A stretch of 64,000 bases of DNA from Candidatus Aminicenantes bacterium (GTDB taxonomy: Bacteria > Acidobacteriota > Aminicenantia > Aminicenantales > JAFGBC01): the NCBI GenBank assembly GCA_963702005.1, contig OY969696.1, positions 2,176,001-2,240,000 on the forward strand, in the 5' to 3' direction. The position numbers were made by a program, and so were the translations under genes. The notes under the pieces were generated by a model. The model saw only the letters and a program-made list of their open reading frames with translations. It was not told where the DNA came from and ran no database searches. This document shows positions 2,835 through 51,245 of the stretch, in pieces; the stretch's first letter is position 1, and every line of letters starts with the position of its first letter.

Positions 2835-2857
2835 CTATAATTTTAGGAGGCGGTGAT

Positions 2858-4552: not shown

Positions 4553-5380
4553 CTATGAGCCGAGCAGGCTGTGGGGAATAAGGTAGACTAAAAGCGTCGC
4601 GATCGAAGCGGCCAGGATCCATCCCCTGGCCGGCCGGCTTTTCCGCCCCGCGACGAGAGCCGCGGCCCAGAGGCCGATGATGGCCAGGGTTTTTGTGTCG
4701 GTGAGGTCGTTTCCCAAAGGCAATCCGGTCCAGAAGGCGCCGAAGGCCAGTTTTTGTACAATCGGACCGAGAATCATTCCGCCCGCGAATAGGAGCCCAA
4801 ACGCCCGGATCGCGAAGGCGCGCGCTTTCCGGCCGCGCGCCGCCGCTTCCAGGCCGGCCCGGGTCGAGAAGATCATGCCCGCGAACATGATCAGGACGTG
4901 GGCGATGAGGACGGCGGCCGGAACGGCGCCCTTGAAACGGATGACGACAGCCGTTTCACCGCTGAGCGAGGTCTCACGTCCCTCCCGCGACAGGATGACC
5001 CGGTATTCGAGCTTGCCCGTCCGAGGCTGCTTGGGCAGAAGTCCCGTCAAGAACTCGCCCCGCCTGTCCATTGAAACGACGAGAGGCGGCTTAGCGCTCC
5101 CCAGGGGCTTGAACTCGAGACGTCCGGACACGGCCGGATCCGGGACGCGGACATGGATCTCGAAGTCGCGGACCGATCCCGCGCTCCGGGGGAGACGGAA
5201 GGAGACGGCCCCGGCCCCGATCACGGCTTGGCCCCGGACGGGATAAGTGGGTCCCGTCACGCGCTGGTAGAAGGCCGAACCGATCGTGATCAGCCCGGCC
5301 AGGAGCCAAAGCGCGGTTGTTTTAATGGCGGTCCCTTTCCTTTCCGGTCGTTCGTCGGCCGAGGTGATCCGCAACGCCAC
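4553..5380 (-). CDS. Hypothetical membrane protein
   Basis: N-terminal TM, soluble beta-rich domain, 4 C-terminal TM helices. Confidence 0.65.
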   Translation of the reverse strand: MALRITSADERPERKGTAIKTTALWLLAGLITIGSAFYQRVTGPTYPVRGQAVIGAGAVSFRLPRSAGSVRDFEIHVRVPDPAVSGRLEFKPLGSAKPPLVVSMDRRGEFLTGLLPKQPRTGKLEYRVILSREGRETSLSGETAVVIRFKGAVPAAVLIAHVLIMFAGMIFSTRAGLEAAARGRKARAFAIRAFGLLFAGGMILGPIVQKLAFGAFWTGLPLGNDLTDTKTLAIIGLWAAALVAGRKSRPARGWILAASIATLLVYLIPHSLLGS

Positions 5381-12373: not shown

Positions 12374-12921
12374 GAACGGTCCTCTTCGAAGCGGAACACG
12401 GCCCGGCAGGCCGCCTTGCCCTCGGTCAGCCGTTCCCGGAATTTGAGGCGGCCTCCGCCGGCCAGCCCGGCCAGGACGCCTTCGTCGAGGGCGGAGATGA
12501 GCGAGCAGACCTCACGGCTGTAATGGCGGCTGAAGCCGCAGGCGCGGATGAGGACCTCGCCGTCGGGCCGGGCGTCGAAATCGATCCCGATCGTGCCGTA
12601 GAGGAGGCGAGCGAGCCGCAAAACCTCCTTACGCGAGGACGGTCCGAAGCGCCGTCTCAAGCGTTCTCCGAACCCGAACGCCCGCGCCCGGAGCCTGGCG
12701 CGGAGGACGGACTGTTCCTCGGGATGAGCCAGGGCCTTTTCGGCCTCGGACCGGCTGAAAAGGGCGTAAGCCTCGAGACGGGCCGGCCAGTCGCGGCCTT
12801 CGAGCGGCGGCGGCGGAACGCCGAACGCGTCGGCCGTCAACCCGGCCAGCTCCGAGAGCGCTCTCGTCTTCAGGGCCGGTGGGATCCAGATTTCGGCCAG
12901 TCTCAGCAGGATTCGGCTCAT
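12370..12921 (-). CDS. Hypothetical protein with V4R/ATC-hydrolase-like Cys pattern
   Basis: C-terminal C..(CGF)..C..DEG..G..C..F pattern; overlaps the GMC gene start. Confidence 0.55.
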   Translation of the reverse strand: MSRILLRLAEIWIPPALKTRALSELAGLTADAFGVPPPPLEGRDWPARLEAYALFSRSEAEKALAHPEEQSVLRARLRARAFGFGERLRRRFGPSSRKEVLRLARLLYGTIGIDFDARPDGEVLIRACGFSRHYSREVCSLISALDEGVLAGLAGGGRLKFRERLTEGKAACRAVFRFEEDRS

Positions 12922-37033: not shown

Positions 37034-38599
37034 TCACTTTCTGAAGACGATGTTGAACGGTTTCCAGACCTTGACCCGGGCTCCATCTTTGATGGCGGGT
37101 CTGAATTTCCACTGCCTCATGGATGTCTCGGCGGCTCGGTCGAAGCCGAAACTCCCCTTTATCCCCCTCAGGATGGTCGTTTGGGTGACATCTCCGCTTT
37201 CGGAGATCAGCGCGTTGACCGTCACGACGCCTTCGATGCCGATCCTTCGGGCCATCTCGGGATAGATCGGTTGGACCCTTTTGGTCTCGACCGGCTGAGT
37301 GTCAACCTGGTCCAGCGGAATAAGGTCGCCCTCCTGAGCCTTACGGACCACCGGCTGGGACGACTCGGCCAGAGCAGGTTCCGTCTTTTCCGGAGCCGCT
37401 TCCGCTGGCTGAGGCTGGTTCTGGATCTGGAGCGTGGGCGTCTGAGCCGGGAGGATGGGGGCCAGCGTGTCCGACGTCCTTCCCGGCTGGGGAGCGGCCG
37501 TCTGGCCTCTGGAGGACCCGGCCGGGGTCGCCTGGGGCTTGGCGGCCGGCTTGGACTCGGCAGCTTGGGGCTGGGTTTGCTGCTGGGAGCCGTTCGGATT
37601 GGACGCCGGCTGTTGAGCGGCGGCATTTGTTTCCGGCACGTTACCGGGGGGGTTCTCAGCGGGCGTTTGAATGCCGGACGGCGTCGCCTCAGTCTGCTGG
37701 GCCGTCTCGACCAGGCCGGTCTCGCTCTTCTTCGGCTTGAGGACGAACATGACGAGGAGCGCGATGACGACGAGGCCGGCGCCGATCCCGATGATGAGCC
37801 CCACCTTCGATTTCTTCTTCTCGGGTTCTTCAATATATCCACCGAACGGCACCGAACCGGGCCGCGCCTCGACGCGCTTTTCTTCATGCTCCCGGACAGC
37901 CGGGGGGACGGTTTCTTCGAGGGCGGGAGGCGTGAAGACGGGCATCTCCTTGGGCTTTTTGGCCTTTTCTTTGGGAAGCTCGGGCTTCTCTTCGTGGCCG
38001 CTCTTGAGACCAAAGTCGGCCAGGGCGCTTTGCAGGATCGTGTCGATTTCGGCCTCGACGTCGGTGGCCCCTTCGGGCGGCTCGACCTTGGCCGTCGAGT
38101 CCTTACCCCCGGGCATCAGCAGACCCCATTCTTCGCTGAAGTCCAGCGCCTTGTCCTTGGCCTGGGCCGGAGCCGGTTCGGCCGCTTCCGGTTCGGGCGG
38201 TGCGGCCTCCGCGGCCGGCTGTTTCTCTCCTTTAAGGAGGTCCCGGAAGACGGGCTGGAGATCTTCTTTTTTCCAGGGTTTCTCGAAAAAGGCGGAAGCC
38301 CCGTAGAACCGGATGGCTTCCGATTTGTAGACCGATTCCCGATAGATGCCGGTCACGATGATGACGGGCACTTTCTTGGCGGAGTCATAAGCGATCTTCT
38401 TGCAGAGCTCGAACCCATGGAGCTTGGGCAGCATGGCCTCCATGATGACGAGGTCGGGCCGTTCGGCCTTGAACTTCTCGAGGCCGGTGATTCCGTCGCT
38501 GGCGGTGACGACGTCGCAACCCTCGCTCTGCGCGAAATCGGACAGCGATTTTAAGGATTCCGCATCGTAATCGATGATCAGCACCTTTTTCTGGCTCAT
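37034..38599 (-). CDS. Response-regulator receiver + TM + TonB C-terminal fusion protein
   Basis: N-terminal receiver (VLIIDYD, LVIMEAMLP, EKP), acidic/Pro linker, TM, TonB_C (YPEMARRIGIEG..QWKFRPA). Confidence 0.85.
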   Translation of the reverse strand: MSQKKVLIIDYDAESLKSLSDFAQSEGCDVVTASDGITGLEKFKAERPDLVIMEAMLPKLHGFELCKKIAYDSAKKVPVIIVTGIYRESVYKSEAIRFYGASAFFEKPWKKEDLQPVFRDLLKGEKQPAAEAAPPEPEAAEPAPAQAKDKALDFSEEWGLLMPGGKDSTAKVEPPEGATDVEAEIDTILQSALADFGLKSGHEEKPELPKEKAKKPKEMPVFTPPALEETVPPAVREHEEKRVEARPGSVPFGGYIEEPEKKKSKVGLIIGIGAGLVVIALLVMFVLKPKKSETGLVETAQQTEATPSGIQTPAENPPGNVPETNAAAQQPASNPNGSQQQTQPQAAESKPAAKPQATPAGSSRGQTAAPQPGRTSDTLAPILPAQTPTLQIQNQPQPAEAAPEKTEPALAESSQPVVRKAQEGDLIPLDQVDTQPVETKRVQPIYPEMARRIGIEGVVTVNALISESGDVTQTTILRGIKGSFGFDRAAETSMRQWKFRPAIKDGARVKVWKPFNIVFRK

Positions 38600-38758
38600 G
38601 CGCTGCCCTTCCTTTATTCGAAATCCGGCTTTTCCCTCGCCGGGAGGGTTAGGGCCGAGGAGGTATCTGCCCGCAAGTCTATTTTCATCGAAGGCGGCTA
38701 AACGTCAATCACCCTTTGAGGTGATTCCCAGGATGAAATTCCCCTCTTGGGGGGGGTG

Positions 38759-40537
38759 TTAGGACCGTCCTCGCCGAAAGCGATGAAACGAGGAAGCGGA
38801 TTGGGGTGAGTGAGGGGTCTCGAACCCCCAACCTTTGTCTTTTCTGCTCCCCGGACGGGTGCCGGGGCCGAGAATGGGCCGGCCCGGGCGCGCGTCCGTG
38901 ATCTTTCCTCCGTCGACGACCAGCTCTCCGTTGACCGCTACATATTCGAAGCCCTGGCTATAGTGGTTAGGGTCGGCATAGGTTGAGCGCTCCTGAACCG
39001 TGTCGGGGTCAAAAGCTACGATGTCCGCCGCCATCCCCGGCCGCAGCAGGCCTCGGTCGCGAAGACGCATCCGAGAGGCTGGCAACGAAGTCATCTTGCG
39101 GACCGCCTCTTCGAGCGGGATCAGCTTGACCTCGCGCACGTAGTGGCCAAGGATGCGGGCGGTCGTCGCCCAGGCCCTCGGATGTGATTTCTCGCGGGAA
39201 AAAATTCCGTCCTCGGCCGAAGTCTCCGAGTCGGTGCACATGGAAACCAGCGGATGCCTGAGCGCCGCTCGCACGTCCTCCTCGCTCATTCCGAAGGTCA
39301 CGCGCATCGTGTTCCCGCGGTCGGCGAGCACGATGTCCATGACGGTGTCGAGAGGATCCTTACCTTCGTCCCGCGCGATCTCGGCGATCGTCTGGCCCTC
39401 ATATTTCTTGAGGTCAAGATTGAGGACGCTCGTGATGAGAATACGCGAGGCGCCCTCGGGCCAGTCGGGATTTTCCGCCAGGAATTCGCGTTTGGCACGG
39501 CCGCGCGTCGTCGGGTCGCGGAGTCGTGCCAGGAGCTGCTCGAGGCTCCCTTCCTGAAGCCATGAGGGTAGACTGTCCACGAGTCCATTCGAACTCGCCG
39601 TCCACGGATATTGGTCGGCGGAGACATCCAGGCCCTGCGCCCGCGCCTCCTCCAGCCTCCTGAGGACGGCAGGCATGAGGCCCCAGTTTTCCTTTCCGGA
39701 CGTTTTGAGGTGGTAGATCTCCGCTGGAATCGCCGCTTCACGTGCGATGCGGAACACCTCATCCAGGCTGGCGTCGATGCCGCCATTATTGTCGTTACCC
39801 TCGTCCCGCTGGTGTGTGATGTAGCTTCCACCGTAGGAAGCGGCGATGCGGGCGAGGGCGATGATCTCATCCGTCGAGGCGTAGCGGTCGGGCACGTAAA
39901 TGAGCGCAGTCGACAGCCCCAGGGCCCCTTCTTCCATGGCCCGGGCCACGGCCGCCTTCATGATCTCGAGCTCCTCCGGCCGGGCACGGCGGTTTTCTTT
40001 GCCGATGACGAGATTGCGGATGCCGCCGGCGCCCACAAATGTCCCCAAATTGACGGCGGACCGTGCCCGCATGAACGCTTCCCAGTAGCCGGCAAGCGTC
40101 GTCCAATCGGGAGTCAGCCCGTACCGGCTCCAGACATCCCGCCCTTCTTCGATCATCCGTTGGTTCAGCGGGCCGATCGACGAACCCTCGCCCGTGATCT
40201 CGGTCGTGATGCCCTGGGTGATCTTGCTCGCGACGCGATTATCGACAAGGATCCTGTATTCGGACTGCCCCATCATGTCAATGAATCCGGGGGCGATGAC
40301 GAGGTGCGAGGCGTCGATCCGGCGCCTGGCAGTGGCCTTGGCGAGATTCCCGATAGCGGCGATCCGGTCACCGACGACGCCGACGTCGGCCCGGAACCAG
40401 GGCGCGCCGGTCCCGTCGACCACGCGGCCGCCCGCGAAAATCAGATCATAGACGGGTCCCTGGCCAAGACAAAGGCCCGCCGTGAGAATGAGCCCGATGA
40501 CCGTTCCGCTAAAGATTCTTATTTTGGCAGCGCCCAA
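38759..40537 (-). CDS. N-acyl-D-amino-acid deacylase (amidohydrolase)
   Basis: VVDGTGAPW, APGFIDM, QGITTE, HPRAW, PGMAADIVAFD; likely TTG start at 40537 after GAGGAGG; C-terminus reads through the tRNA-His fragment. Confidence 0.88.
   Translation of the reverse strand: MGAAKIRIFSGTVIGLILTAGLCLGQGPVYDLIFAGGRVVDGTGAPWFRADVGVVGDRIAAIGNLAKATARRRIDASHLVIAPGFIDMMGQSEYRILVDNRVASKITQGITTEITGEGSSIGPLNQRMIEEGRDVWSRYGLTPDWTTLAGYWEAFMRARSAVNLGTFVGAGGIRNLVIGKENRRARPEELEIMKAAVARAMEEGALGLSTALIYVPDRYASTDEIIALARIAASYGGSYITHQRDEGNDNNGGIDASLDEVFRIAREAAIPAEIYHLKTSGKENWGLMPAVLRRLEEARAQGLDVSADQYPWTASSNGLVDSLPSWLQEGSLEQLLARLRDPTTRGRAKREFLAENPDWPEGASRILITSVLNLDLKKYEGQTIAEIARDEGKDPLDTVMDIVLADRGNTMRVTFGMSEEDVRAALRHPLVSMCTDSETSAEDGIFSREKSHPRAWATTARILGHYVREVKLIPLEEAVRKMTSLPASRMRLRDRGLLRPGMAADIVAFDPDTVQERSTYADPNHYSQGFEYVAVNGELVVDGGKITDARPGRPILGPGTRPGSRKDKGWGFETPHSPQSASSFHRFRRGRS
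38802..38835 (-). repeat. 34-bp copy of the tRNA-His 3' end (distal att site)
   Basis: tggggtgagtgaggggtctcgaacccccaacctt identical to 48851-48884. Confidence 0.92.
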
Positions 40538-40659
40538 TTCGCCCTCCTCTTCGGCACATCCAATGCCTGGGAATAACCCAGCCTCTTTCTCTAACCGGCA
40601 ACCTGCGGGTTTGGGTCGGGGTTCTCCTGATCCCACGCCGCTGAACCTGCGCCGCAGAA

Positions 40660-40689
40660 AGTATAGGTGCCGGCCTGGAGCGATGTCAA
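40660..40689 (-). promoter_or_regulatory. Sigma-70 promoter for the D-aminoacylase gene
   Basis: Minus strand TTGACA-18 bp-TATACT; supports the internal start. Confidence 0.55.
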
Positions 40690-40896
40690 CTTGACCTGCC
40701 TTTATAAGATTGGGCCGGATATGGAAGTGGTATAGAGCAAGAAATTCGGAACTTAGACCCATCCTTAAATCGGCCCCGATGCCTCGCTAGGTACTGCCCA
40801 TTGGTGGAGGGGCACTCAGGTCCCCTTCAGCCCGGCCAGCCACATCCTGGCATCTTCAGGCTCTGCCGTTTATCGAATGGGATTTCGTTTTGCCCT

Positions 40897-41211
40897 CTAG
40901 TGAGTTGAGCGCTCGACAATCGCTTCCACTACCTCCATTATGACGAGGAGGACGGCAATAAACCCAAAGACCACGGCCAATATCACGACGGGTGAGCGGT
41001 CCTTGAACTTAATTAAGCTTACGATCCCGGTAACGAAAGCGGCAATTCCGGATATCATCATGGATGTTCCCAGCATAATAAGGAGGGGGCTCCCGATTTT
41101 CATTCCTTTCAATCCCAATAAATTCCTCCTGTTAAGAACCGCAATAAGAAGCGCAACGAACACGGCCATCAATATGCCGGCCCATTTTCCGAGTTTTGTT
41201 TTCGGCATCAT
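40897..41211 (-). CDS. Small 3-TM membrane protein (cargo)
   Basis: MMPKTKLGKW then three hydrophobic helices; own TTGACT-17-TATCCT promoter at 41242-41270. Confidence 0.7.
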   Translation of the reverse strand: MMPKTKLGKWAGILMAVFVALLIAVLNRRNLLGLKGMKIGSPLLIMLGTSMMISGIAAFVTGIVSLIKFKDRSPVVILAVVFGFIAVLLVIMEVVEAIVERSTH

Positions 41212-41397
41212 TTTCCCCTTTCCCCTTTGTTTGCTGGTCAAAGGATAACGCCGTCGGGAAGGGAAGTCAATTAGTGGTGGCCTGTATGCTCAACGAGGCA
41301 TCACGCATACGAAGGCAGTCGGTCAGCACGGCACAATCAGCTGGGGGATGATGGGTCTGGCCTGCATAGGGGGCTTTCGGGGCTGCTGGACGCGGGC

Positions 41398-41522
41398 AGA
41401 CTCCGCCGCCGTGTCACACCGTTGTCACAAAAAGTGCTAAAACTCGTCTACTTCGGACTAAAGGTGCTTAAAAGGAAAACTTAGGAAACCTTAGATTATC
41501 AGGGAAAACGAGGGGATTAAGC
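41398..41522. repeat. att-arm-like element A (homologous to 43781-43905)
   Basis: agactccgcc, TGTCACA-N4-TGTCACA (41412-41429), ~10-bp periodic (C)TAA motifs, then tRNA fragment. Confidence 0.75.
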
Positions 41523-41565
41523 TGGCTGGGAAGCAAGGATTCGAACCTCCGACCTTTGGATCCGG
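41523..41565 (-). repeat. Chimeric tRNA 3' fragment (Arg-CCG anticodon/T-arm side + Gln-type acceptor end)
   Basis: Reverse complement ccggatccaaaggtcggaggttcgaatccttgcttcccagcca; 30 bp identical to 42130-42159. Confidence 0.8.
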
Positions 41566-41587
41566 GAGGGAGGCCGACGACCTATCC

Positions 41588-42046
41588 CTATTTCAGGATG
41601 TCCTCTTCCCCTCTCTGTGCCTTTGCCAATTGCAGGTACTTCTTCGCCGATATGATTGCCAGAATTGCGGCGATCAGGTTCGCTCCAATACAGACCAGCA
41701 TCAAGATCGCCTCTGCGCGGAATCCTTCATAGAACTGCAGAGAATAGACGGCAAGTTGGAACACCATGAAGTCATGTAGAAATAAGAGGAGCGCCCCAAG
41801 ATAAAGGGGGCCGCTGAGCATTCTGACGCCGCGCCGGCTCAGAATGACAACGGCCAGCAAAACAACGACCGCAACCAATTGGATTGCAAAAAATATCTTG
41901 GAAGAAGAATCGACGCGGTCGGCAATCGCCTCAGGATGCGCGGCCAGTCGAGGCACGAACAAGAGAGCCCACAAAGCGGCCACTCCGATTGCGATTGCGG
42001 TTGCGGTATAGACCATGCGCCGCGAAGTGGTTTCTTTGTCCATCAC
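41588..42046 (-). CDS. 4-TM membrane protein (cargo of the 594-bp unit)
   Basis: AAGGAGGT RBS, four hydrophobic helices. Confidence 0.72.
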   Translation of the reverse strand: MMDKETTSRRMVYTATAIAIGVAALWALLFVPRLAAHPEAIADRVDSSSKIFFAIQLVAVVVLLAVVILSRRGVRMLSGPLYLGALLLFLHDFMVFQLAVYSLQFYEGFRAEAILMLVCIGANLIAAILAIISAKKYLQLAKAQRGEEDILK

Positions 42047-42116
42047 AGATACCTCCTTCCAATGCTGATCACTAGTTTATATCAGAATGCTTGACAACAA
42101 AATAGGGGGGGGGATG

Positions 42117-42161
42117 TGGCGTGCCTGAGAGGATTCGAACCTCCGACCTTTGGATCCGGAG
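42117..42161 (-). repeat. 3' half of a tRNA-Arg(CCG) (att-like fragment)
   Basis: Reverse complement ctCCGga-tccaa-aggtc-ggaggTTCGAATcctct-caggcac-g-CCA; no 5' half present. Confidence 0.8.
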
Positions 42162-42204
42162 GCTCCCGGTGCTCTGGCACGAACGGGGATCCGGGCCCGG
42201 GCAT

Positions 42205-42483
42205 TCAGTTTGTCGGCTTGGTGTCCGGCAGGTCCTTGCCCGCTTTCTTCATGTATCTCCGGCCTTCCTCGTAGATGTCAAAATCCTCTTTCCTGTCCAG
42301 GCGCACCTTTTTCCTCTGTCCATCGTCGGTCTGGAAAATTACAAGATATGCGTGCTTGGAGAGAGTGCAGGTCTTCTTGGCCTCGACGGTCCCCGACCAT
42401 TCCTTGCGGCGATCCCTTTTTCTCCTAACCCAGGGTAAGAAAACGAGCCCGTCACCCAGGAGTTCAAGTATGAAATCAATCAT
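42205..42483 (-). CDS. Small hypothetical protein (cargo)
   Basis: AAGGAGG RBS; hydrophobic N-terminus, basic beta-rich C-terminus. Confidence 0.6.
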   Translation of the reverse strand: MIDFILELLGDGLVFLPWVRRKRDRRKEWSGTVEAKKTCTLSKHAYLVIFQTDDGQRKKVRLDRKEDFDIYEEGRRYMKKAGKDLPDTKPTN

Positions 42484-42560
42484 TTCGAACCCTCCTTCTC
42501 ATCCGCCCCTCACCAGTCTCGGGGCAGGGTCTCCGCCCGCCGGACCTACCTTCCCGTTGC

Positions 42561-43385
42561 TTATTTTAGCGTCAGCCCGATCCTCTTTTTATCTTTCGCC
42601 CAATAAATATAGAGCGCTTTGCCTTTTACATTGGCGAGAGGGAGAGTTCCCCAGTAGCGGCTGTCGTAGCTATTGTCGCGATTATCTCCGAGAACGAAAC
42701 AATGGCCAGCGGGCATCTTAAGCGGGCCGAAGTTGTCCCGGCTGTTGTCTATGACGATATCCTCGTGGACCTTGTATGATTCCTGGAGGGGTTCGTTACC
42801 GATAAAGACTTGCTTATTTTTTATTTCGACCGTTTCGCCTTCAAGAGCGATGACACGCATGAGAAATTGCTTTGTGGGATCTCGAGGATACTCGAAAACG
42901 ACTAAATCCCCCCGCTTAGGCGCCTGGTCGCTAAAGCCTTTTGGGTCCGTCATCAAGAAATCGTCTTTTTGAAGAGTCGGCATCATGGAGGCCGAAGGAA
43001 ACTTGTACGGTGAGACGCCTAGAGACGTCATCCAAATCCTTGCCGGAACGAAAATCTTCAAGCCGAGTGAAAGAATGATAAAGAACGCATAGACGAGAGG
43101 CGTTTGATATTTCCTAAGCCCCGTCTCCTTGGTCCGGCGCGCCTGGACAAAAGCGTGGATGATAGTGAACAACCAGAAAACAAAGACGGCTAGGACGAGC
43201 GCCATGAACCCGCTAAAATGGCGCGGCCAGCCGGCCAATCCCCAAAGAAAAGGTAGGGCGACAGAGAAGACAAAGAATATAATTCCAAGGACACCTTTCC
43301 CGTTATAGATCTGTCCGAGACCAGGAACGAGCAAAGACAGAAGGGCGGCGATGAACGGATTCCTTTTTTTCTTTTCGGCGGTCAT
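42561..43385 (-). CDS. Signal peptidase I paralogue with extra N-terminal TM domain (cargo)
   Basis: NPFIAALLSLLVPGLGQIYNG, PSASMMPTL, RGDLVVF, GDNRDNSYDSRYWG; the catalytic Lys position reads FLMRVI. Confidence 0.85.
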   Translation of the reverse strand: MTAEKKKRNPFIAALLSLLVPGLGQIYNGKGVLGIIFFVFSVALPFLWGLAGWPRHFSGFMALVLAVFVFWLFTIIHAFVQARRTKETGLRKYQTPLVYAFFIILSLGLKIFVPARIWMTSLGVSPYKFPSASMMPTLQKDDFLMTDPKGFSDQAPKRGDLVVFEYPRDPTKQFLMRVIALEGETVEIKNKQVFIGNEPLQESYKVHEDIVIDNSRDNFGPLKMPAGHCFVLGDNRDNSYDSRYWGTLPLANVKGKALYIYWAKDKKRIGLTLK

Positions 43386-43638
43386 GATTCCCTCCCTACG
43401 TTCGTTGATTTCTTGGTTTCTTTTCCCCCCGGGGACCCGCGAGCCCAGCTCATCGCAGCGTTCTCTATATCGCGCAGAAAGGAAAAGAAATTGACCTCTG
43501 GCACGGGATGGCTTTCCCTCCCATTAAGCCCGGGACCCCTCTCCCTCGGTACGAAAAGATGATATTCCCAAGCTTGATTCTATGTCAAGGACCAGTATGG
43601 AGAACGACTGAGTTATCATAAGTTCGGGGCCTTAAGAT

Positions 43639-43764
43639 TGACCTGCCACCCCTTAAACCGATCCAGGCATAATGAGAAAAACCTGGGAGAAAGGAGCCTT
43701 AATGGGCAGGGTATGGTTCACTCCGGAACAAATCATTGAAAAGCTCCGTGAGGCCGAAGTCCTC
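43639..43764 (+). mobile_element. Truncated IS3-family left end with orfA start
   Basis: TGACCTGCCACCCC end, AAGGAG RBS, ATG 43702 MGRVWFTPEQIIEKLREAEVL, then cut off. Confidence 0.7.
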
Positions 43765-43780
43765 AGATCTATCGAAATCT

Positions 43781-43905
43781 AGACTCCGCCCCATGTCACA
43801 AATATGTCACAGATTGTGCCTAAACTCGCTTAACTTAGCCTAACGGAACCTAAATAGGAAAAAGCCTAACTTTCTTATTCACCAGGGGAAAACAGGGAGA
43901 ACAGG
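43781..43905. repeat. att-arm-like element B (homologous to 41398-41522)
   Basis: agactccgcc, TGTCACA-N4-TGTCACA (43794-43811), periodic CTAA motifs. Confidence 0.75.
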
Positions 43906-43954
43906 TGGGGTGAGTGAGGGGTCTCGAACCCCCAACCTTCGGATCCACAGTCCG
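43906..43954 (-). repeat. 49-bp copy of the tRNA-His 3' end including the anticodon loop
   Basis: Identical to 48851-48899. Confidence 0.93.
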
Positions 43955-44456
43955 GGAAGTGCGCGCCCCATTCGGTTTTCAATCGACCGTGAACAAAAGG
44001 CTTCCCAGCCGGACGGGATCCTTCTCGTGCATCGCGGCACGCCGGTTGGATCTATTAAGTTATGATAAGGCTGGGAAAAGGAGGCAAGCCGTGAAGCGGA
44101 AAGGCGTCGTCTTCCTAGCTTCCTTCGATTTGTTGTTCATAGTGCTGAGTGTCTTGCTCTACGGGTCTTTCGCTCCCGCCGATCAAGTCGGCTCGCTGCT
44201 GGTAACAAACAACAGCGACCTGGTCAACAGGGATACGTCCAGCCCGGACACGCTGGTCGCCAACCCGGGGCCCGACGGCATCTCACTCCGGGAGGACATG
44301 CTCGCGGCCGCGGGCGCTACGACATCCCTCGCAATTAGCTTCACCCCGTCTTTGAGGGTGGACTGACCCCCAAAAATTGAACCACCCCGAGTGCTAAATA
44401 TTAGGATGCTATAATAGACATCATCAGCCGGGAGAAGGCCTTTAAAGGAGGCTCTG

Positions 44457-44768
44457 ATGGTGTCCGAGAAACACGGCAAACGGTACACGGCGCGGTTCAA
44501 GTTCCAGGTGGTGATGGAAATCTTAAGCGGGGCCAAGGCCATCGGACAGATCGCGCGGTCCTATGGCGTTCATCCGGTGACTCTCAGCCATTGGAAGAAA
44601 GAGTTCATCGAAAAAGGGCCGGAGATCTTCTCCCAGCACACCACGATCCAGGAGTACGAGAAACGGATCGAGGACTTGGAACGGTTAATCGGCCATAAAG
44701 AAGTGGAGATCGCGCTCCTAAAAAATTTCATGGCCGGGAGCTCACCCCGGGGGAAAAAGTTGAGCTGA
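44457..44768 (+). CDS. IS3 transposase OrfA
   Basis: HTH (IGQIARSYGVHPVTLSHWKK) plus leucine zipper; A6 slippery site at ~44720. Confidence 0.88.
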   Translation: MVSEKHGKRYTARFKFQVVMEILSGAKAIGQIARSYGVHPVTLSHWKKEFIEKGPEIFSQHTTIQEYEKRIEDLERLIGHKEVEIALLKNFMAGSSPRGKKLS

Positions 44769-44806
44769 CGCGGGCGTTTAAGGACGACTATGGGCTGAAC
44801 AGAGTC

Positions 44807-45637
44807 TTGGCGGCTCTGGGGCTTTCGAAAGGGACTTGGCATTATGCCCAGACGAGACCGAGTTATGAAGAGAAGCATGTCGGGCTGAGGAAACCGTTGC
44901 TCGAGATTGCCAGAACCCATCCGGAATACGGATACCGGAGGACGAGTGCCGAGCTCCGGGATCGAGGAATCCAGGTCAATCGGAAAGTCGTGGCGCGTCT
45001 GCATGGGACCTGGGATTTAGCCGTGATTCGACGGGTGAGGAAGCCGAAAACAAGCTCCCTGGCAAAGCTTCTTAAAGACACCGGGTCTAAGATCAATCTC
45101 GTGGCCGGCCTGACCGAGATCGATGATTTTGAGGTCGTCTATACGGATTTTACGGAGCTGCTCTACCGGAGAGGCCGGGCGAAAGCCCAGCTGATGCCGT
45201 TCGTGGATCATTCGAGCAAACTCGTTTTAGGCCACGCCCTGGGAGAGGCGGATAATACGGAGTTGGCCCTGGACGCCTGGCGCAAGGCGAAGACGACGCT
45301 CCGAAGATACGGACGGACAACGGAAGGGCTGATCGTTCATCATGATCAGGATGGTGTTTATTTAGGCCATGGCTGGCTCCGTGAGCTTGCCGTCCAGGAT
45401 AAAGTGCGCGTTTCCTATTCGGAAAACGGGGCCAAGGGCAACGTCCACATGGAGTCGTTCAATTCCCGATTCAAAGCCGAGAATCGGCTGTTGTTTTGGG
45501 AACAGGAAGATCTCCCTTCATTGAAAAAGGTTGTCGGGCAGCGGATCCGGTACTATAATCACGTTCGTCGACACTCGGCGTTGGGTTACCAATCGCCGAT
45601 TCGATATCTCAAAGAAAAGGGCCGAAGACCCGGCTGA
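44807..45637 (+). CDS. IS3 transposase OrfB (DDE), probably fused to OrfA by -1 frameshift
   Basis: YGYRR, TDFT, HHDQDG, ESFN, YN..RRHSALGY.SP. Confidence 0.9.
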   Translation: MAALGLSKGTWHYAQTRPSYEEKHVGLRKPLLEIARTHPEYGYRRTSAELRDRGIQVNRKVVARLHGTWDLAVIRRVRKPKTSSLAKLLKDTGSKINLVAGLTEIDDFEVVYTDFTELLYRRGRAKAQLMPFVDHSSKLVLGHALGEADNTELALDAWRKAKTTLRRYGRTTEGLIVHHDQDGVYLGHGWLRELAVQDKVRVSYSENGAKGNVHMESFNSRFKAENRLLFWEQEDLPSLKKVVGQRIRYYNHVRRHSALGYQSPIRYLKEKGRRPG

Positions 45638-45909
45638 GATGTTAGCGGAATTTAGCCCTCTAAGTGGTTCGAAAAATGGGGGTCATGTCCGGGCCCCAAG
45701 ATCTCAATCTCAGATAGGCTGCCGCGCATCACGGGGGGCAGCTTGAAGATCACGGGCGACATTAACGCCGACGGCACGTCGGACATCTCGCTCGACGGCG
45801 GGAAGAAAGCCGCGGAAGCGAATTCTAAGGATCTTTCAGAATCCAAACATCTCCCACTATCACCAACATGTCGCAAATTCGGTTGAAAAGCGCGTAAACT
45901 ACGTCATTG

Positions 45910-46030
45910 AAATCGATGCCTCTTTCGACGAGTTGGGCTGCAAACGTGTGCCGTAGGTCATGAAATCGAAGGCCCCTGATCCCAGCTCTACGTGTGGTTG
46001 CGTTGAAAGCCGTCTTGACATCAAGGGGCC
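45910..46030 (-). pseudogene. Tyrosine integrase remnant (box II region)
   Basis: [39 protein letters not shown]; no N-terminus and no catalytic Tyr region. Confidence 0.85.
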
Positions 46031-46043
46031 GCGGTTCTATCCT
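46015..46043 (+). promoter_or_regulatory. Sigma-70 promoter for the kinase gene
   Basis: TTGACA-17 bp-TATCCT, 28 bp before ATG 46072. Confidence 0.65.
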
Positions 46044-46071
46044 CTGGGCAGACAAGGACTGGGATGGGCGC

Positions 46072-48750
46072 ATGATCGGCCAGCTCGTTTCCCACTACCG
46101 GATCCTGGAGAAGCTCGGCGGCGGAGGCATGGGCGTCGTCTACAAGGCCGAAGACACCAGGCTCAAGCGCGCGGTCGCCCTGAAGTTCCTGCCCGAGGAG
46201 TCGCTCCAAGAGCCGCACGCCCTGGAGCGCTTCGAGCGGGAGGCCCAGGCCGCATCGGCCCTGAACCACCCGGGGATCTGCACCATTTTCGATATCGACC
46301 AACACCAGGGACGCCATTTCATCGCCATGGAGCTACTCGAGGGCCGGACCCTGAAGCGGCGCATCCTCGGCCAGCCGGTCCCGGCCGACGAGATCATCAA
46401 TCTAGCTATCCAGATCGCCGACGCCCTCGACGCCGCCCACGGCAAGGGCATCATCCATCGGGACATCAAGCCGGACAACATCTTCGTCACCGATCGCGGC
46501 CTAGCCAAGATCCTCGATTTCGGCCTGGCCAAAACGATGCCGCGAGAAACGGCTGCCGCGGGCTCGGCCGGCCCGACCGTCACCGCCCCGGAGCCGCTGA
46601 CCGGAGCCGGCGCGGCGGTCGGGACGGTGGCTTATATGTCCCCGGAGCAGGCCCGGGGCGAGCCGCTTGATGCCCGCACCGATCTTTTTTCCTTAGGCGT
46701 CGTGCTCTACGAAATGGCGACAGGTCGGCAGGCCTTTACTGGCTCCACCTCGGCCGTCATCTTCGACGCCATCCTTCATAAAGCCCCGACATCTCCCGTC
46801 CGGCTGAACCCGGATGTCCCGCCCGAGCTGGAGCGGATCATCAACAAGGCCCTGGAGAAAGAACGGCGGTTGCGCTACCAGAGCGCGGCCGAGATCCGGG
46901 CCGATCTCGAGCGGCTGAAACGGGATTCCACCTCGGCGCGCATAGCCGCCTTTGAAGACCAAGCGGCGCCATCGGCAGGCCCCATCGCCTCGGGGCGTAA
47001 GAGACGCCGATGGATCCCTTGGGCCGCGGGGGCAGTCGCCGTGCTCGTCTTAGCCGCGGCCGGCATGCTTCTCCTAATGGGGCATAAAAAGCCCTCCGAA
47101 ACAGCCGTTCCCCAAGTGGCCAACGCTGTCAAAGTGACCACCGCCATGGGTGCCAAGGACTGCCCAAGCTGGTCTCCGGACGGCCGCATGCTGGTCTACC
47201 AGTCCGACCAAGCAGGGAACTGGGACATCTGGGTCACCCAGGTCGGGACGAGCCAGGCCGTCAACCGGACGGCCGACAGCCCGGCCAACGAGATGAATCC
47301 CACCTGGTCGCCGGATGGTCAGTGGATCGCCTTCTTTTCGGACCGGACCGAACGCGGCTACTACGTCATGCCCGGGATCGGCGGCAAGGCCCATCGGATC
47401 GCCTCTTTGGAGTTTGCCGATGCCTATCCGACGGCGGCCCAATGGTCTCCGGACAGTACTCATCTGGCCTATGCCCTGCGCCAGCGCGTCGAACCCTACA
47501 TCGAGATCCTGACCGTGGCCAGTGGCCAATCCAAGAGGCTGACGCTTCCGAACCGGGCCCGCAACAATTCCATCATCGACATGAGCTGGTCGCCCGACGG
47601 GCGCTGGCTCGCCTATGCCCGGGCCATTAGCCCCATCGCAGCGACCGCCGAACTGTGGCTGACGCACACGACCGACGAGAAGAGCTTCCAGCTGACCGAC
47701 GGGACCTTGAGGGATACCAGCCCGACCTGGTCTCCGGACGGCCGCGAGCTCTATTTCATCTCCAATCGCGGCGGGACGCCTGACCTCTGGCGGTTCGCGA
47801 TTGGCGGCCAGGGACTGCCGGAGGGGCCGCCGCGGCAGATCACGGCCGGCATCGAGATGACCCATGCCGTCATAGCCCCGGGCGGACGGACGTTGGCCTA
47901 TTCCAAAGGCCGGACGGTCCGCAACGCGTTCCGGGCCCCCCTCCCGGCGGGCCGGCCGATCACCTGGACGGACGCCACCCAGCTGACCTTCGACGAAGCG
48001 GAGATCGAGTCCGTCGAAGTCTCAAAGGACGGACGGATCCTGGTCAGCTCGGACAGATCGGGAAACTGGGACATCTACCTGCTGTCCCCGGACTCGGGCG
48101 ATCTGCAACAACTGACGACCGATCCGGGAGTGGATGCGGGCCCGCGCTGGAAGCCCGACGGCAGCGAGATCGCGTTCTACTCGTCGAGAACGGGCCATCG
48201 GGAAATATGGCTCATGCCCGTGGGCGGCGGCCCGGCGCGGCAACTCACCCACGGCGAGGTCGAGAGTTTCAACCCGGCTTGGTCCCCCGACGGGAAGTCC
48301 ATCACCATGGAGAGCGGGGGCATTTTGATCCTCGACCCTCAAAGCCTCAAGGTGAGGAACTTAACCGACAAAGAAACCAATTGCCACCCGGACTGGTCCC
48401 CTGACGGGCGCTGGGTGGCCTTCAGTGAAAAGGGCAACCAAGGGTGGCAGATTTTTCGCATCGCAGCCTCCGGTGGGCTGGTCGAGCAGCTGACACGAGG
48501 AGGAGGCTGGACGCCCCGTTGGTCCCCCGACGGGAAGCGGATCTACATGATCGGCACCGGAAGCCGGAGGAATGCCATCTGGGCCCTATCACTCGAGAGC
48601 CGGGAGGAATGGCCGGTGACAGCATTGACCGGCCGGCGCGGCGCGCTGGGATATAACGGCCTAGCCGTCGACGGCCGGTTCCTCTATTTCACCTGGGAAG
48701 AGGTGCGCAGCGACATCTGGGTCGCCGATATCGTCCGGCCGGTGAAGTGA
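46072..48750 (+). CDS. Ser/Thr protein kinase with TM and TolB-like PD40 beta-propeller repeats (cargo)
   Basis: [28 protein letters not shown]; TM helix; repeated P.WSPDG. Confidence 0.93.
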
Positions 48751-48850
48751 CCGCCTGTCCGTTTTTCTTAACAAGAGTTCAATTAATCCAAAATGATTTG
48801 TATAAGGAGATTCTCTTATCAGGCTAACTGATTGAATATTGAGGGAACAG

Positions 48851-48928
48851 TGGGGTGAGTGAGGGGTCTCGAACCCCCAACCTTCGGATCCACAGTCCGA
48901 TGCTCTAACCAATTGAGCTACACTCACC
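48851..48928 (-). tRNA. tRNA-His(GTG)
   Basis: GGTGAGTGTAGCTCAATTGGTTAGAGCATCGGACTGTGGATCCGAAGGTTGGGGGTTCGAGACCCCTCACTCACCCCA: cloverleaf, G-1, encoded CCA. Confidence 0.96.
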
Positions 48929-49074
48929 GTCCCTTCGGAGGCGTATGATTTTCTCATCTCGTCGCCCCATTGTCAATACTGGCTCCAACTCGTTTTATAT
49001 CAATCAATTATGGTAAATTTCGGCCTCCCAAAAAAGGCTTAATACCCAAGTCCGGAAGGGCCGGCCCGGCTTGA

Positions 49075-49989
49075 CTATCGTTTCTGGCCCTCGATGAGGT
49101 CGAGGACGTCGGCCGAATCGCGCCAGCGGGGCCGGACCTTGACCTGGAGGTCGAGATAGATCCGGGTCTTGAGGATGTCCTCGATCTCCCGGCGGGCCTC
49201 GCTCCCGATCGCTTTGAGAAGCTGGGCGTGGCGGCCGATGACGATTTTGCGTTGGGAGTCCTTTTCGACGAGGATGCTTGCTTGGAGGTAGATGACGGGC
49301 GGGCGGGGGGCTTGTCCTTCCGGCGTCTCGGCGCTGCGTTCCTCGATCTGCTCGAGGAGGACGGCCGTCACGAAAGGCAGCTCCTGTTCGACGCGCGCGA
49401 GGAGTTTCTCGCGGATGATTTCGGCCAAGAAGAACCGTTGAGACTGGTCTGTGATCTCGTCGGCTGCATAAAGCCGGTCCGCTTCGGGGAGAGCGTGGTA
49501 GAGGCAGTCCTCGAGCCGGTCGAGGTTGATCCCCTTGAGGGCCGAGATGGGGATGATCTCCTTGAAGGCCAGGAGGTCCTTGTAGCGGTCGATGAGGGGG
49601 AGGAGCTTGTCTTTCCGGATCAGGTCGACCTTGTTGAGGAGGAGGAATAGGGGCTTGGAGACGTCCTTGAGGATCTCCAGGGCGTAGGCGTCCCCGTGGC
49701 CGAAAGGCTGGGCGGCGTCGACGAGAAGGCAGACCAGGTCCGCCGTCTGGAGGGAGGTGAAGACAAAGTTCATCATCCGGCGGTTGAGGCCGTGCAGGGG
49801 TTTGTGGATGCCGGGGTTGTCGATGAAGACGATCTGTCCCCGGTCGCCGGTCTTGATGCCCAGGATGCTGATGCGGGTCGTCTGGGGTTTATCCGAGACG
49901 ATGGCGACCTTGCGGCCCAGGATCCGGTTGAGGAGGGTCGACTTTCCCGCGTTGGGCCGGCCGACCAGGGCGACGGTCCCCGAGTTCAT
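49075..49989 (-). CDS. era: GTPase Era
   Basis: GRPNAGKST, KPQTTR, NKVD, KH domain. Confidence 0.96.
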   Translation of the reverse strand: MNSGTVALVGRPNAGKSTLLNRILGRKVAIVSDKPQTTRISILGIKTGDRGQIVFIDNPGIHKPLHGLNRRMMNFVFTSLQTADLVCLLVDAAQPFGHGDAYALEILKDVSKPLFLLLNKVDLIRKDKLLPLIDRYKDLLAFKEIIPISALKGINLDRLEDCLYHALPEADRLYAADEITDQSQRFFLAEIIREKLLARVEQELPFVTAVLLEQIEERSAETPEGQAPRPPVIYLQASILVEKDSQRKIVIGRHAQLLKAIGSEARREIEDILKTRIYLDLQVKVRPRWRDSADVLDLIEGQKR

Positions 49990-51245
49990 GGGCGGGACCC
50001 GTCCTGCCCCCCGGCCGACTCCCGGACCCGGAGTTTCTTGACGCGTTTGGGATCGACATCGAGGACCTCGAAGCTGAGGCCCTTGATAACAACCGTCTCG
50101 CCCTTGCGGGGGAGCCGGCCCAGGTGGTGGGTGACGAGGCCGCCTGCGGTGAGGAAGTCGTCCTCGGCCAGATCGCGCTCGAAGCGGTCCTCGAGCTCCT
50201 CGACTTCGACCTCGCCGGAGAGGGTGAAGTCCCGAGGCCCGTTCTCGACGATCCGGGGCTCCTCGAGGTCATACTCGTCCTGGATCTCGCCGACGATCTC
50301 CTCGACGAGGTCCTCCATGGTCACCAGCCCCGACACCCCGCCGTGCTCGTCGACGACGATGGCCAGCTTGACCTTGGCCCGCTTAAATTCCTTGAGGAGG
50401 GCCGAGACCTCCATGGATTCGGGAACGAAAATAACGGGACGGAGCAGGCCCTCGATGGGCAGGTTTTTATGCGAGGGGTCGGCGTATTCGAGGAGATCCT
50501 TGGCGATGACGATGCCTTCGATGTTGTCGATGCGATCCTTGTAGACGGGAATCCGCGAATACTGCTCCTTGATGATGAGCTCGCGGAGCCGTCCGATCGT
50601 CGTGTCCTTCCGGATGCAGACCATCTTGACCCGGGGCGTCATGATCTCCCGGACGAGCGTGCCGCCGAACTCGACGACGCCGCGCAGGAGACCCTCTTCC
50701 TCTTTTTCGATGATGCCTTCTTCCTGGGCCTCGTCGAGGAAGGTCTCGATGGCATCCTCGGTCGCCGCCTCGCGCGGCTCGTCCGCCTCCACCTTTTCCT
50801 CCTCCCCCCGCTCCTGGAGGCGGCGGGAAAGGAAGGTCAAGGGCGAGCTCAGGGCGAGGAGGGGGCCGAGGACGGGAAGGATCGATCCCAGGAGGCGGCC
50901 CCGGCTCAGGGCGTTGATGAGGCGGGGAACGTATTCAAAAATAAGGAGATAGCCGGCCAGGGCGGTCAGCATCGGGCCCGCCGGCCAGAACCGGCCGCGC
51001 CGGAAGACGAAGAATAATAAAAGGCCCGAAGCCAGGATGGACAGGATACGCAGAATCTCGACCGCGATCCGGAGATCGTCGAAGCGGTCGATCATCCGCT
51101 GGCGGAATTCCTTTTTCCGGTCCTCGAGGATTCCGCTGAAAGCGATCTTGGAGATCGCGTTCAGGGAGACATGGAGGAGGGACAGGAGGAAGGCGGCCAA
51201 CCCGCATACGGCCAATCCCATTCCGGCCAGCCAGGCAGCCCTCAT
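49986..51245 (-). CDS. HlyC/CorC family CBS-domain transporter
   Basis: TM domain, VREIMTPR, SRIPVY, VDEHGG..TMEDLVEEIVGEI. Confidence 0.9.
   Translation of the reverse strand: MRAAWLAGMGLAVCGLAAFLLSLLHVSLNAISKIAFSGILEDRKKEFRQRMIDRFDDLRIAVEILRILSILASGLLLFFVFRRGRFWPAGPMLTALAGYLLIFEYVPRLINALSRGRLLGSILPVLGPLLALSSPLTFLSRRLQERGEEEKVEADEPREAATEDAIETFLDEAQEEGIIEKEEEGLLRGVVEFGGTLVREIMTPRVKMVCIRKDTTIGRLRELIIKEQYSRIPVYKDRIDNIEGIVIAKDLLEYADPSHKNLPIEGLLRPVIFVPESMEVSALLKEFKRAKVKLAIVVDEHGGVSGLVTMEDLVEEIVGEIQDEYDLEEPRIVENGPRDFTLSGEVEVEELEDRFERDLAEDDFLTAGGLVTHHLGRLPRKGETVVIKGLSFEVLDVDPKRVKKLRVRESAGGQDGSRP

Follow-up and report, generated by a model that had tools for sequence, protein, structure and literature searches.

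A 594-bp single-gene unit bounded by tRNA-Arg fragments in Candidatus Aminicenantes, probably a miniature islet lacking an integrase

We analysed a 64,000-nucleotide stretch of a Candidatus Aminicenantes genome (contig OY969696.1, positions 2,176,001 to 2,240,000; hereafter the window, with positions counted from its first letter) and focused on a 594-bp unit in which one predicted membrane-protein gene, here called the cargo gene, lies between two copies of a 30-nt sequence (the 30-mer) derived from tRNA-Arg(CCG). The comparisons described below make it fairly likely that this unit is a miniature islet without an integrase, bounded by attachment (att) sites and resembling a cis-mobilizable element (CIME), which would have arisen by tyrosine-integrase integration at tRNA-Arg(CCG), became nested in a tRNA-His array and is now fixed. 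The source genome (G000) is a single 4.31-Mb contig with 60% G+C. Other genomes of the order Aminicenantales used for comparison are also designated by G-numbers, and the labels f and g denote the families and genera of the search tool.

Results

An exact repeat pair encloses a single gene

The window contains two exact copies of the 30-mer, at 41536-41565 (R1) and 42130-42159 (R2), with a start-to-start distance of 594 bp, and no match arose in 100 dinucleotide-preserving shuffles (0/100). Two further exact copies are present in the genome at 3573 and 4543, for a total of 4. The DNA enclosed between R1 and R2 measures 0.56 kb and its sole sizeable and credible open reading frame (ORF) is the cargo gene, whose stop codon (41588-41590) is separated from the left copy by 22 nt (41566-41587) and whose product contains four hydrophobic segments by a Kyte-Doolittle scan. 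Both structural claims of the sequence-only reading, namely a perfect 30-bp direct repeat delimiting 594 bp and a single 152-aa membrane-protein gene ending about 22 bp from the left repeat, are confirmed by these data. The parts of the unit are as follows:

41536-41565, minus strand: R1, the left 30-mer copy, equivalent to positions 35-64 of f4-type tRNA-Arg(CCG), from the anticodon loop to the T-loop
41588-42046, minus strand: cargo gene, 152 aa from a GTG start; database homologs begin one codon later, giving 151 aa
42047-42116, minus strand: 70-nt spacer from R2 to the cargo start, with GGAGG before the start and a run of C directly after the tRNA end
42117-42161, minus strand: R2, the right copy with its flank, the 3′ part of f4-type tRNA-Arg(CCG) (positions 33-75 plus CCA), holding the 30-mer at 42130-42159

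The loop remnant of R1 carries a 1-nt insertion, which shortens its identity with R2. ARAGORN identified no tRNA at either 30-mer copy, and the only tRNA that it called in the window was tRNA-His; likewise, an Rfam search of 38000-50000 at E values up to 1 matched tRNA-His alone and neither repeat copy. Between 41300 and 42700 we found no sigma-70-type promoter, although the organism may use other signals, and no terminator positioned to serve the cargo gene, with no intrinsic terminator after it on its own strand.

The repeats carry the tRNA sequence of another family

R2 together with its flank (42119-42161) is identical at 43 of 43 positions to positions 33-75 of an intact tRNA-Arg(CCG) gene in G135, followed by CCA, and R1 matches positions 35-64 of the same gene; both copies are read on the minus strand. 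The source genome has its own tRNA-Arg(CCG) at 2366448-2366523, which differs from the 30-mer at 3 of 30 positions and has a different acceptor stem as well. With up to one mismatch allowed, the 30-mer was found in 65 of the 246 genomes of the order. In family f4 it is present in 51 of 87 genomes, and there the sequence is carried by intact tRNA-Arg(CCG) genes. In family f1, to which the source genome belongs, only G000 (4 copies) and G001 (3 copies) of three genomes have it. Eleven copies are present in G019. The repeat sequence is that of another Aminicenantales family, f4, and not that of this genome's tRNA-Arg(CCG); because the 30-mer is native to the f4 gene and mismatched with the gene of G000, the repeats are foreign to the G000 lineage.

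The derivation from tRNA-Arg that had been proposed from the sequence is thus confirmed by the 43/43 match, with two corrections: no intact tRNA is present at the unit, and the genome holds two additional copies of the repeat. In an alignment of one intact tRNA with nine fragments, taken from five genomes, 8 of the 9 fragments share a start position in the anticodon loop, the exception being the fragment that precedes the cargo gene in G175, which is divergent up to the T-stem. R2 has no recoverable 5′ half, and tRNA models did not recognise a complete cloverleaf at either copy. We also considered R2 as a decayed full-length tRNA, with a flank (GTGCC..AGAGC) that recalls an acceptor stem and a D-arm with a deletion. 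This candidate was dropped after a shuffle test, in which the 54-nt upstream flank of R2 was locally aligned with the 5′ 32 nt of the tRNA from G135 and 1189 of 2000 shuffles gave a score as good.

The cargo gene recurs beside tRNA-Arg genes and a sister genome retains the empty site

The cargo protein had no match in Pfam, NCBIfam, PADLOC or PHROGs, its family profile matched no PDB sequence at E values up to 1, and no family member was found in the viral contigs, plasmids or phages searched. All 104 database homologs are unnamed or loosely named and come from Aminicenantes-type metagenome genomes, Candidatus Aminicenantales being the only lineage named among them. Within the order the distribution is patchy, with the gene in 16 of 246 genomes and 8 of 68 genera. 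Across 16 sequences 20 columns are invariant, and a paralog at a second locus of the source genome (locus B, described below) differs from its G175 counterpart by 9 synonymous and 8 non-synonymous changes, a ratio of non-synonymous to synonymous rates (dN/dS) of about 0.27. The gene is thus under constraint; its predicted product is a conserved four-helix membrane protein, and the gene travels with its downstream fragment.

Nineteen homologous loci with flanking sequence were counted, leaving aside a partial match at a contig end in G242 (L030). A tRNA gene or fragment lies within 700 nt of the cargo gene at 10 of the 19, and at 8 of these it is of a tRNA-Arg type (CCG, TCG, ACG or a TCT-like fragment). 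By comparison, 2.5% of the source genome lies within 700 nt of one of its 89 tRNA or tRNA-fragment sites; the cargo loci are related to each other, so that a binomial figure for this proximity overstates its significance.

Three loci were decisive, the one in G175 being described below together with locus B. In G135, an intact tRNA-Arg(CCG) is followed by a 585-nt spacer, the cargo gene and, after 20 nt, a tRNA fragment (positions 33-74), and the junction between cargo gene and fragment is homologous to the junction of cargo gene and R1 in G000 and G001. A tyrosine integrase is located immediately upstream of the G135 tRNA, outside the unit, preceded by a small ORF with an excisionase-like helix-turn-helix and no Pfam match. 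In G024, a 3′ fragment is followed by the cargo gene as the sole ORF and then by an intact tRNA-Arg(TCG). Its sister genome G221 has the same flank (89.6% identity over 404 nt) and after about 100 nt the intact tRNA, which corresponds to the empty site; the difference between both genomes is a repeat-bounded insert of about 805 bp. In a third sister, G222, the site is occupied by a unit of 6.5 kb, which encodes a kinase and a protein resembling outer-membrane receptors but no integrase. The proposed check, whether the cargo gene is again found with tRNA fragments elsewhere, was thereby positive, with G135 and G024 having the cargo gene as the sole ORF. Since the cargo gene is recurrently bracketed by tRNA-Arg pieces and a sister genome retains the empty site, we interpret the unit as the product of site-specific integration and not of chance.

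The cargo gene is not always alone. In G170 it lies in the middle of a 3.8-kb repeat-bounded unit with other genes and without an integrase. No second repeat beyond chance-level 8-13-mers was detected at four more homologs that lie close to tRNA sequence, in G222 (Arg-ACG), G221 (Arg-TCT-like fragment), G028 (Ala fragment) and G024:C14 (tRNA-Lys). Separately, an element of about 58 nt just upstream of the G024 tRNA-Arg(TCG) (L039:8809-8866) is present in dozens of copies with 81-95% identity in G222 and G221, and looks like a miniature repeat family.

Units without a recombinase gene are frequent at tRNA-Arg sites

In the loci retrieved from f4 genomes, G000 and G001, successive Arg(CCG)-type sites of like orientation delimit 36 intervals. 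Their lengths range from 520 to 18,368 bp and 12 of the 36 are 1.2 kb or shorter, in a set of loci chosen partly for short repeat spacing. Only one of the 36 holds a recombinase-like ORF by tblastn with six recombinase queries, which divergent recombinases could escape. The cargo is unrelated from one unit to another, including an NAD-binding protein (a 974-bp unit in G140), peptidases (G177), ORFs resembling lipoproteins, and kinases with a zinc ribbon. Beside tRNA-Arg sites in G019 (L067-L073), G222 (L066) and G024 (L039), large proteins that begin with a zinc ribbon are repeatedly encoded; the G222 protein, of 850 aa, consists of Pkinase and TPR domains by Pfam, and the others, of about 800-1050 aa, share the N-terminal motif by eye.

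Recombinases located beside related sites are mostly tyrosine integrases (G135, G152), and a large serine recombinase abuts the tRNA in G160. Where integrases are present, they read towards the fragment, as in G152 (25 nt away) and in the tRNA-Arg(ACG) island of the source genome, where xis (2734045-2734257) and int (2734869-2736146) are followed by an Arg(ACG) fragment at about 2736150-2736200. This xis-int-att layout, which G152 has as well, is that of a pSAM2-type integrative element. The 594-bp unit has no tyrosine integrase of its own reading towards an att fragment. Among the 12 PF00589 matches in the source genome, none adjoins any of the four 30-mer copies and none lies between the repeats; the match closest to the 30-mer copies is an 82-aa fragment (45825-46073) that belongs to a tRNA-His unit. 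A cognate integrase was not found in G000 either, the best homologs there of the G135 and G152 integrases being 33-35% identical.

A second locus in the same genome carries permuted modules

Locus B (2420-4574) contains four co-oriented Arg(CCG)-type fragments between small genes, in the order 149-aa cargo paralog (62% amino acid identity), paralog of the 92-aa ORF that lies next to the unit in the window (89% amino acid identity), 162-aa membrane protein and 89-aa ORF. The spacer at 42047-42116 is homologous to a spacer of this locus (4451-4531). The cargo and 92-aa modules are permuted between both loci, as the 92-aa gene is within the repeat pair at locus B and outside the pair in the window. 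We rejected this permutation as evidence of a circle because the homology of the 92-aa module ends 46 nt upstream of the gene start and at the gene stop, neither of which is an att site. A G175 segment comprising fragment, cargo gene and 92-aa gene is 92.6% identical to locus B over 880 nt, while Era, a core protein, shares only 65% identity between G000 and G175 (95% between G000 and G001). The G000/G175 homology extends from within the fragment to the stop codon of the 92-aa gene.

Two additional features of this locus were observed. A stretch of about 100 nt next to the fragment at 3562-3609 has a duplicate next to a partial fragment at 2420-2440, and a 240-aa ORF (4488-5210) extends across another fragment, at 4532-4574.

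The left repeat is a hybrid of tRNA-Arg and tRNA-Gln

R1 and R2 differ in their acceptor part. Two parts overlap or adjoin R1 on its left side:

41523-41548, minus strand: tRNA-Gln(CTG)-type 3′ end (T-loop, acceptor strand, CCA), identical at 26 of 26 positions to the tRNA-Gln of the source genome (2037846-2037871)
41396-41522, minus strand: AT-rich arm, directly downstream (in the tRNA sense) of the Gln-type end, a member of a 5-copy family

The Gln-type end overlaps R1 by 13 nt that are common to the T-loops of both tRNAs. Only 30 nt of the Arg site remain in R1, which is a hybrid of Arg and Gln sites and would represent the junction of the Arg-bounded unit with a neighbouring module. The other four copies of the arm family, with 73-82% identity, each begin right after a tRNA 3′ end: tRNA-Asp, tRNA-Glu(CTC), a partial tRNA-Glu and a Glu fragment. 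The arm is probably the terminal arm of a neighbouring family of integrative elements, and its copies may serve as arm-type binding sites for a family of islands with more than one target tRNA. The four copies are at 347294-347378, 1790019-1790090, 1792109-1792209 and 3143191-3143274; the element measures about 85-110 nt and has a conserved core with two GTTACAC-like direct repeats. The window copy had no match in Rfam.

The hybrid is also present in G001, a genome of the same genus, which shares a 2.56-kb block (window 43954-41395) with 95.8% identity, hybrid R1 included, and a single mismatch in R2. Synteny with the window stops at 41395, and the block in G001 has different surroundings, between a tRNA-Leu(CAA) 5′ fragment and that tRNA. 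In G001 (L036) this 5′ fragment, 42 nt at 7082-7123, is 5.5 kb upstream of the intact gene (12656-12744) and brackets the shared block; in G024, a tRNA-Arg(TCG) 5′ fragment (positions 1-50) is 3.2 kb upstream of the intact tRNA-Arg(TCG). From these arrangements, some elements of the order appear to duplicate the 5′ part of their target.

The arrangement is the same in a sister genome and in environmental contigs

Parts of the window stretch are present in contigs of 20 sequencing runs from 17 studies. We compared contigs of four runs (X1, X2, X3 and X17) over 40000-44100 and neither a 594-bp skip nor a 594-bp back-joint, the signatures of excision and of a circle, was listed among their joints, rare forms being invisible in contigs. 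The joints listed were skips of 845, 1006, 2459 and 71 bp and go-backs of 45 bp at R2; their short sides measure 23-37 nt and start or end at tRNA-like sequence, and such joints often come from other organisms. A 1399-nt contig of X2 bridges 41412-42316, spanning R1, the cargo gene, R2 and the next gene. A 623-nt unitig of X17 (41536-42158) was considered as a candidate circle and rejected as the expected product of a k=31 graph at a 30-mer repeat. In contigs of X1 and X17, the tRNA-Arg 3′ part (42117-42161) is followed by a second copy 45 nt on, indicating near-adjacent duplicate fragments in some environmental genomes.

The unit has the same arrangement in the sister species G001 and in the environmental contigs, and in the source genome we infer that it is a fixed fossil, now probably immobile. 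The 594-bp circle and the analogy with integrons suggested by the sequence-only reading are retained only in part. The likeness in economy stands. Present-day excision as a circle finds no support, as no excision product was seen in the contigs (which speak neither for nor against it), a cognate integrase was not found and R1 is a hybrid.

The unit is nested in a tRNA-His island array

The 594-bp unit sits in the second compartment of an array of islands at tRNA-His. The array and the neighbouring genes comprise the following:

48851-48927, minus strand: intact tRNA-His(GTG), the anchor of the array (ARAGORN, Rfam)
43905-43954, minus strand: att repeat of the array, identical over 50 nt to the 3′ end of tRNA-His
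38801-38850: third, degenerate copy of the tRNA-His 3′ end, with 34 nt exact at 38802-38835
42205-42483, minus strand: 92-aa ORF just outside the repeat pair, with a weak DUF7489 match below the Pfam cut-off
42561-43385, minus strand: signal peptidase I homolog, extended at its N terminus, within the 2.56-kb block common to G001
44457-45637: IS3-family transposase, in the proximal tRNA-His unit
45825-46073: C-terminal fragment of a tyrosine integrase, 82 aa, in the proximal tRNA-His unit
45994-48750: Ser/Thr kinase fused to TolB-like repeats, 918 aa, in the proximal tRNA-His unit

The integrase of the tRNA-His unit looks truncated on both sides. A 667-aa amidohydrolase ORF (38759-40762, minus strand) runs through the degenerate tRNA-His fragment, its last approximately 25 codons being derived from the tRNA, and its peptide GWGFETPHSP is also found in a spurious ORF over the real tRNA-His; the native C-terminus of this protein may have been replaced by an integration scar. 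A further tRNA-His fragment is present in the genome at 1793869-1793920.

Genome-wide, 89 tRNA or tRNA-fragment sites were counted in G000, where ARAGORN called 53 genes. Among the orphan fragments are Val(CAC) (three copies at 167-177 kb), Arg(TCG), Ala, Asp, Glu and Leu, and two of Arg(ACG) at 2736 and 2738 kb. The second Arg(ACG) unit contains two paralogous 209-aa genes, phage tail-collar-like by eye, and no integrase.

Discussion

Taken together, the comparisons with G135 and with the pair G024/G221 suggest how the unit could have formed. As they show, an element with the cargo gene and a copy of the tRNA-Arg 3′ part integrated by tyrosine-integrase recombination over the segment from the anticodon loop to the 3′ end, leaving the order tRNA, cargo gene, fragment. 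Such a unit, or a composite containing one, would then have entered the lineage of G000 and G001, probably inside a larger composite island; formation elsewhere followed by import is suggested by the foreign tRNA sequence in the repeats. The 5′ half of the tRNA, absent today, would have been lost, and the distal fragment would have recombined in the T-loop with the Gln-type att end of another element, an event of which the hybrid R1 is the visible trace. Finally, the block would have moved into the tRNA-His array in G000 and into the tRNA-Leu interval in G001, where its surroundings differ. An integrase supplied in trans that recombined the repeats would yield a 594-bp circle; neither such an enzyme nor such a product is evident.

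Several points weigh against reading the unit as a decayed, fixed islet. The history of integration and excision is deduced from comparison, with no step directly observed. None of the 19 cargo loci is an integrase-bearing island bounded by the same repeats, so that decay from a larger element, which belongs to the definition of a CIME, is no more than presumed. For the possibility that the cargo gene belongs to a much larger island, raised at the outset as what would speak against a single-gene unit, these loci offer no integrase-bearing parent, although G170 has the gene in a 3.8-kb unit with others. The presence of the same gene at tRNA-Arg(CCG), at tRNA-Arg(TCG) and between an orphan pair fits a unit that moves as a whole at least as well as repeated decay. 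The fossil label rests on absence of evidence, as contigs are blind to rare excision products. The interval survey was in part selected for short spacing and relied on six queries. Lastly, the window copy of the cargo gene differs from that of G001 by 1 synonymous and 3 non-synonymous changes, too few for an informative dN/dS.

In one alternative, the cargo gene and one tRNA-Arg site form an active cassette, moved as a sub-kilobase circle by a tyrosine integrase acting in trans, with arrays growing in the manner of integrons. Occurrence of the same sole ORF at three sites (CCG in G135, TCG in G024 and the orphan pair shared with G001) and the natural empty site in G221 speak for it. So do the 92.6% identity between locus B and G175 over 880 nt, compared to 65% for Era, with one end of the homology within a fragment, the 12 of 36 intervals of at most 1.2 kb with unrelated single genes, the lack of a recombinase-like ORF in 35 of the 36, the 11 copies of the 30-mer in G019, and the parasitic mobility documented for the integrase-less H47 island (PMC3191183). 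However, G000 lacks a cognate integrase (33-35% identity at best), its R1 is a hybrid with only 30 nt of the site left, and G001 and the environmental contigs show the very same layout. On its other side the G000/G175 homology ends with the stop of the 92-aa gene instead of an att site, four further tRNA-adjacent homologs showed no second repeat, and in G170 the cargo gene is mid-unit among other genes. Interval sizes form a continuum from 0.5 to 18 kb, which decay would also produce. On balance we consider current or recent movement as a cassette rather unlikely.

We regard as improbable that the pair arose incidentally, when tRNA fragments in island-rich regions underwent homologous or illegitimate recombination, with a cargo gene that resides in a tRNA-proximal hot spot and was never delimited as a unit. 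The abundance of such sites (89 against 53 called genes) would favour this process, R1 itself is a recombinant of two tRNA types over a 13-nt identity, and modules have been shuffled away from att sites, as for the 92-aa gene, whose homology ends 46 nt upstream of its start. Nevertheless, the junction of cargo gene, spacer and fragment is conserved between G000/G001 and G135, 8 of the 9 aligned fragments share their start in the anticodon loop, and G024 differs from G221 by a clean repeat-bounded insert. The remaining possibility would make the repeat a mere consequence of retaining the downstream tRNA fragment as a cis-acting element for 3′ processing or stabilisation of the transcript. Several loci do have a co-oriented gene that ends 20-140 nt upstream of a fragment, and the cargo gene has no intrinsic terminator after it on its own strand. 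However, a tRNA fold is impossible for fragments that lack a 5′ half, both copies go unreported by ARAGORN and Rfam, R1 and R2 differ in their acceptor parts, and the same fragments also bound units with genes on the opposite strand, making such a role very improbable. We thus favour the miniature att-bounded islet, with the reservations given above.

The islet can be compared with known systems. CIMEs keep attL and attR, have lost their integration and transfer genes and accumulate by accretion (PMC5704250). As described there, att-type direct repeats arising from integration into the 3′ end of a target, the absence of integrase, excisionase and transfer genes inside the unit, and a location in tandem with other units at one hot spot are features also found here. 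In contrast, the unit is only about 0.6 kb with one gene, both att copies are orphan fragments and one is a hybrid of two tRNAs; descent from an integrative and conjugative element (ICE) or an integrative and mobilizable element (IME), and mobilisation in cis, are not part of this structural match. In Dehalococcoides, tandem islands occur at ssrA; 15 of these lack the integration module, and it was suggested that they are CIMEs or have become fixed (PMC3146451). Multiple tandem islands beside one small-RNA gene, bounded by its 3′-end direct repeat, are common to both cases. That report describes a tmRNA target, a 20-bp repeat, a serine recombinase and several genes per island, whereas here the repeats are tRNA fragments of 30-50 nt, the recombinases are mostly tyrosine integrases and fragments are also found far from a tRNA. 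The 13-kb microcin H47 island of E. coli moves with recombination functions supplied by the host, its excision and integration having been shown experimentally (PMC3191183). Like the 594-bp unit it lacks recombination genes of its own and has direct repeats (imperfect in H47) and hybrid att sites, which in H47 arise when recombination uses different identity segments; unlike it, the H47 repeats are not presented as tRNA fragments in the account given there, and the unit described here is known from sequence alone. It is standard for an integrated element to end distally in a direct repeat that is a partial tRNA gene, for example the 44-bp repeats of the 21.4-kb PYG1 (PMC9897764); the cases in that paper, as far as it sets them out, are about 9-23 kb beside an intact tRNA, in contrast to 0.56 kb enclosed with no intact tRNA. 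Our searches of the openly accessible literature turned up neither tRNA-att units of sub-kilobase size with a single gene nor tRNA-Arg arrays in Aminicenantes, although the supplementary tRNA-fragment tables of PMC9897764 might hold small cases.

The comparison with integrons is less close. An integron gene cassette consists of one gene and one attC site with imperfect inverted repeats, and cassettes form co-oriented arrays at an intI and attI platform. The unit resembles it in having one gene and one site, co-oriented arrays and a recombinase outside the unit. Unlike it, there is no attC-type site, the repeat being a colinear tRNA copy (positions 35-64 or 33-75) in which the only evident pairing is a short T-arm by eye, and there is no intI/attI platform, as no PF00589 match adjoins any of the four 30-mer copies. 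Judged on its structure, the unit shares the features of CIMEs and lacks those that define an integron cassette.

What sets the unit apart is its one-gene size, its recurrence at different tRNA-Arg isoacceptors, the hybrid Arg/Gln site and the many recombinase-less units in the order. It shows that an att-bounded unit without an integrase can be as small as one gene in 0.6 kb. For a lineage that is uncultivated, the recurrence of the cargo gene and the natural empty site make trans-mobilisation of single genes by tRNA-targeting integrases testable. The foreign tRNA sequence of the repeats serves as a tracer of the donor lineage, and orphan tRNA fragments offer a practical marker for dissecting composite islands. 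A broader proposal, which we put forward tentatively and with considerable doubt, is that the tRNA-Arg 3′ half in Aminicenantales may act as a recombination site for recombinase-less units, from sub-kilobase to a few kb, which tyrosine integrases encoded elsewhere would insert and excise at tRNA-Arg genes or at existing fragments; the 594-bp unit would then be a cassette caught after its transfer to a lineage without the enzyme. If the unit is only a fossil, it would exemplify ordinary, unusually compact decay and accretion of islands; if the cassette reading were true, the order would possess a gene-capture system with the logic of integrons on tRNA-type att sites.

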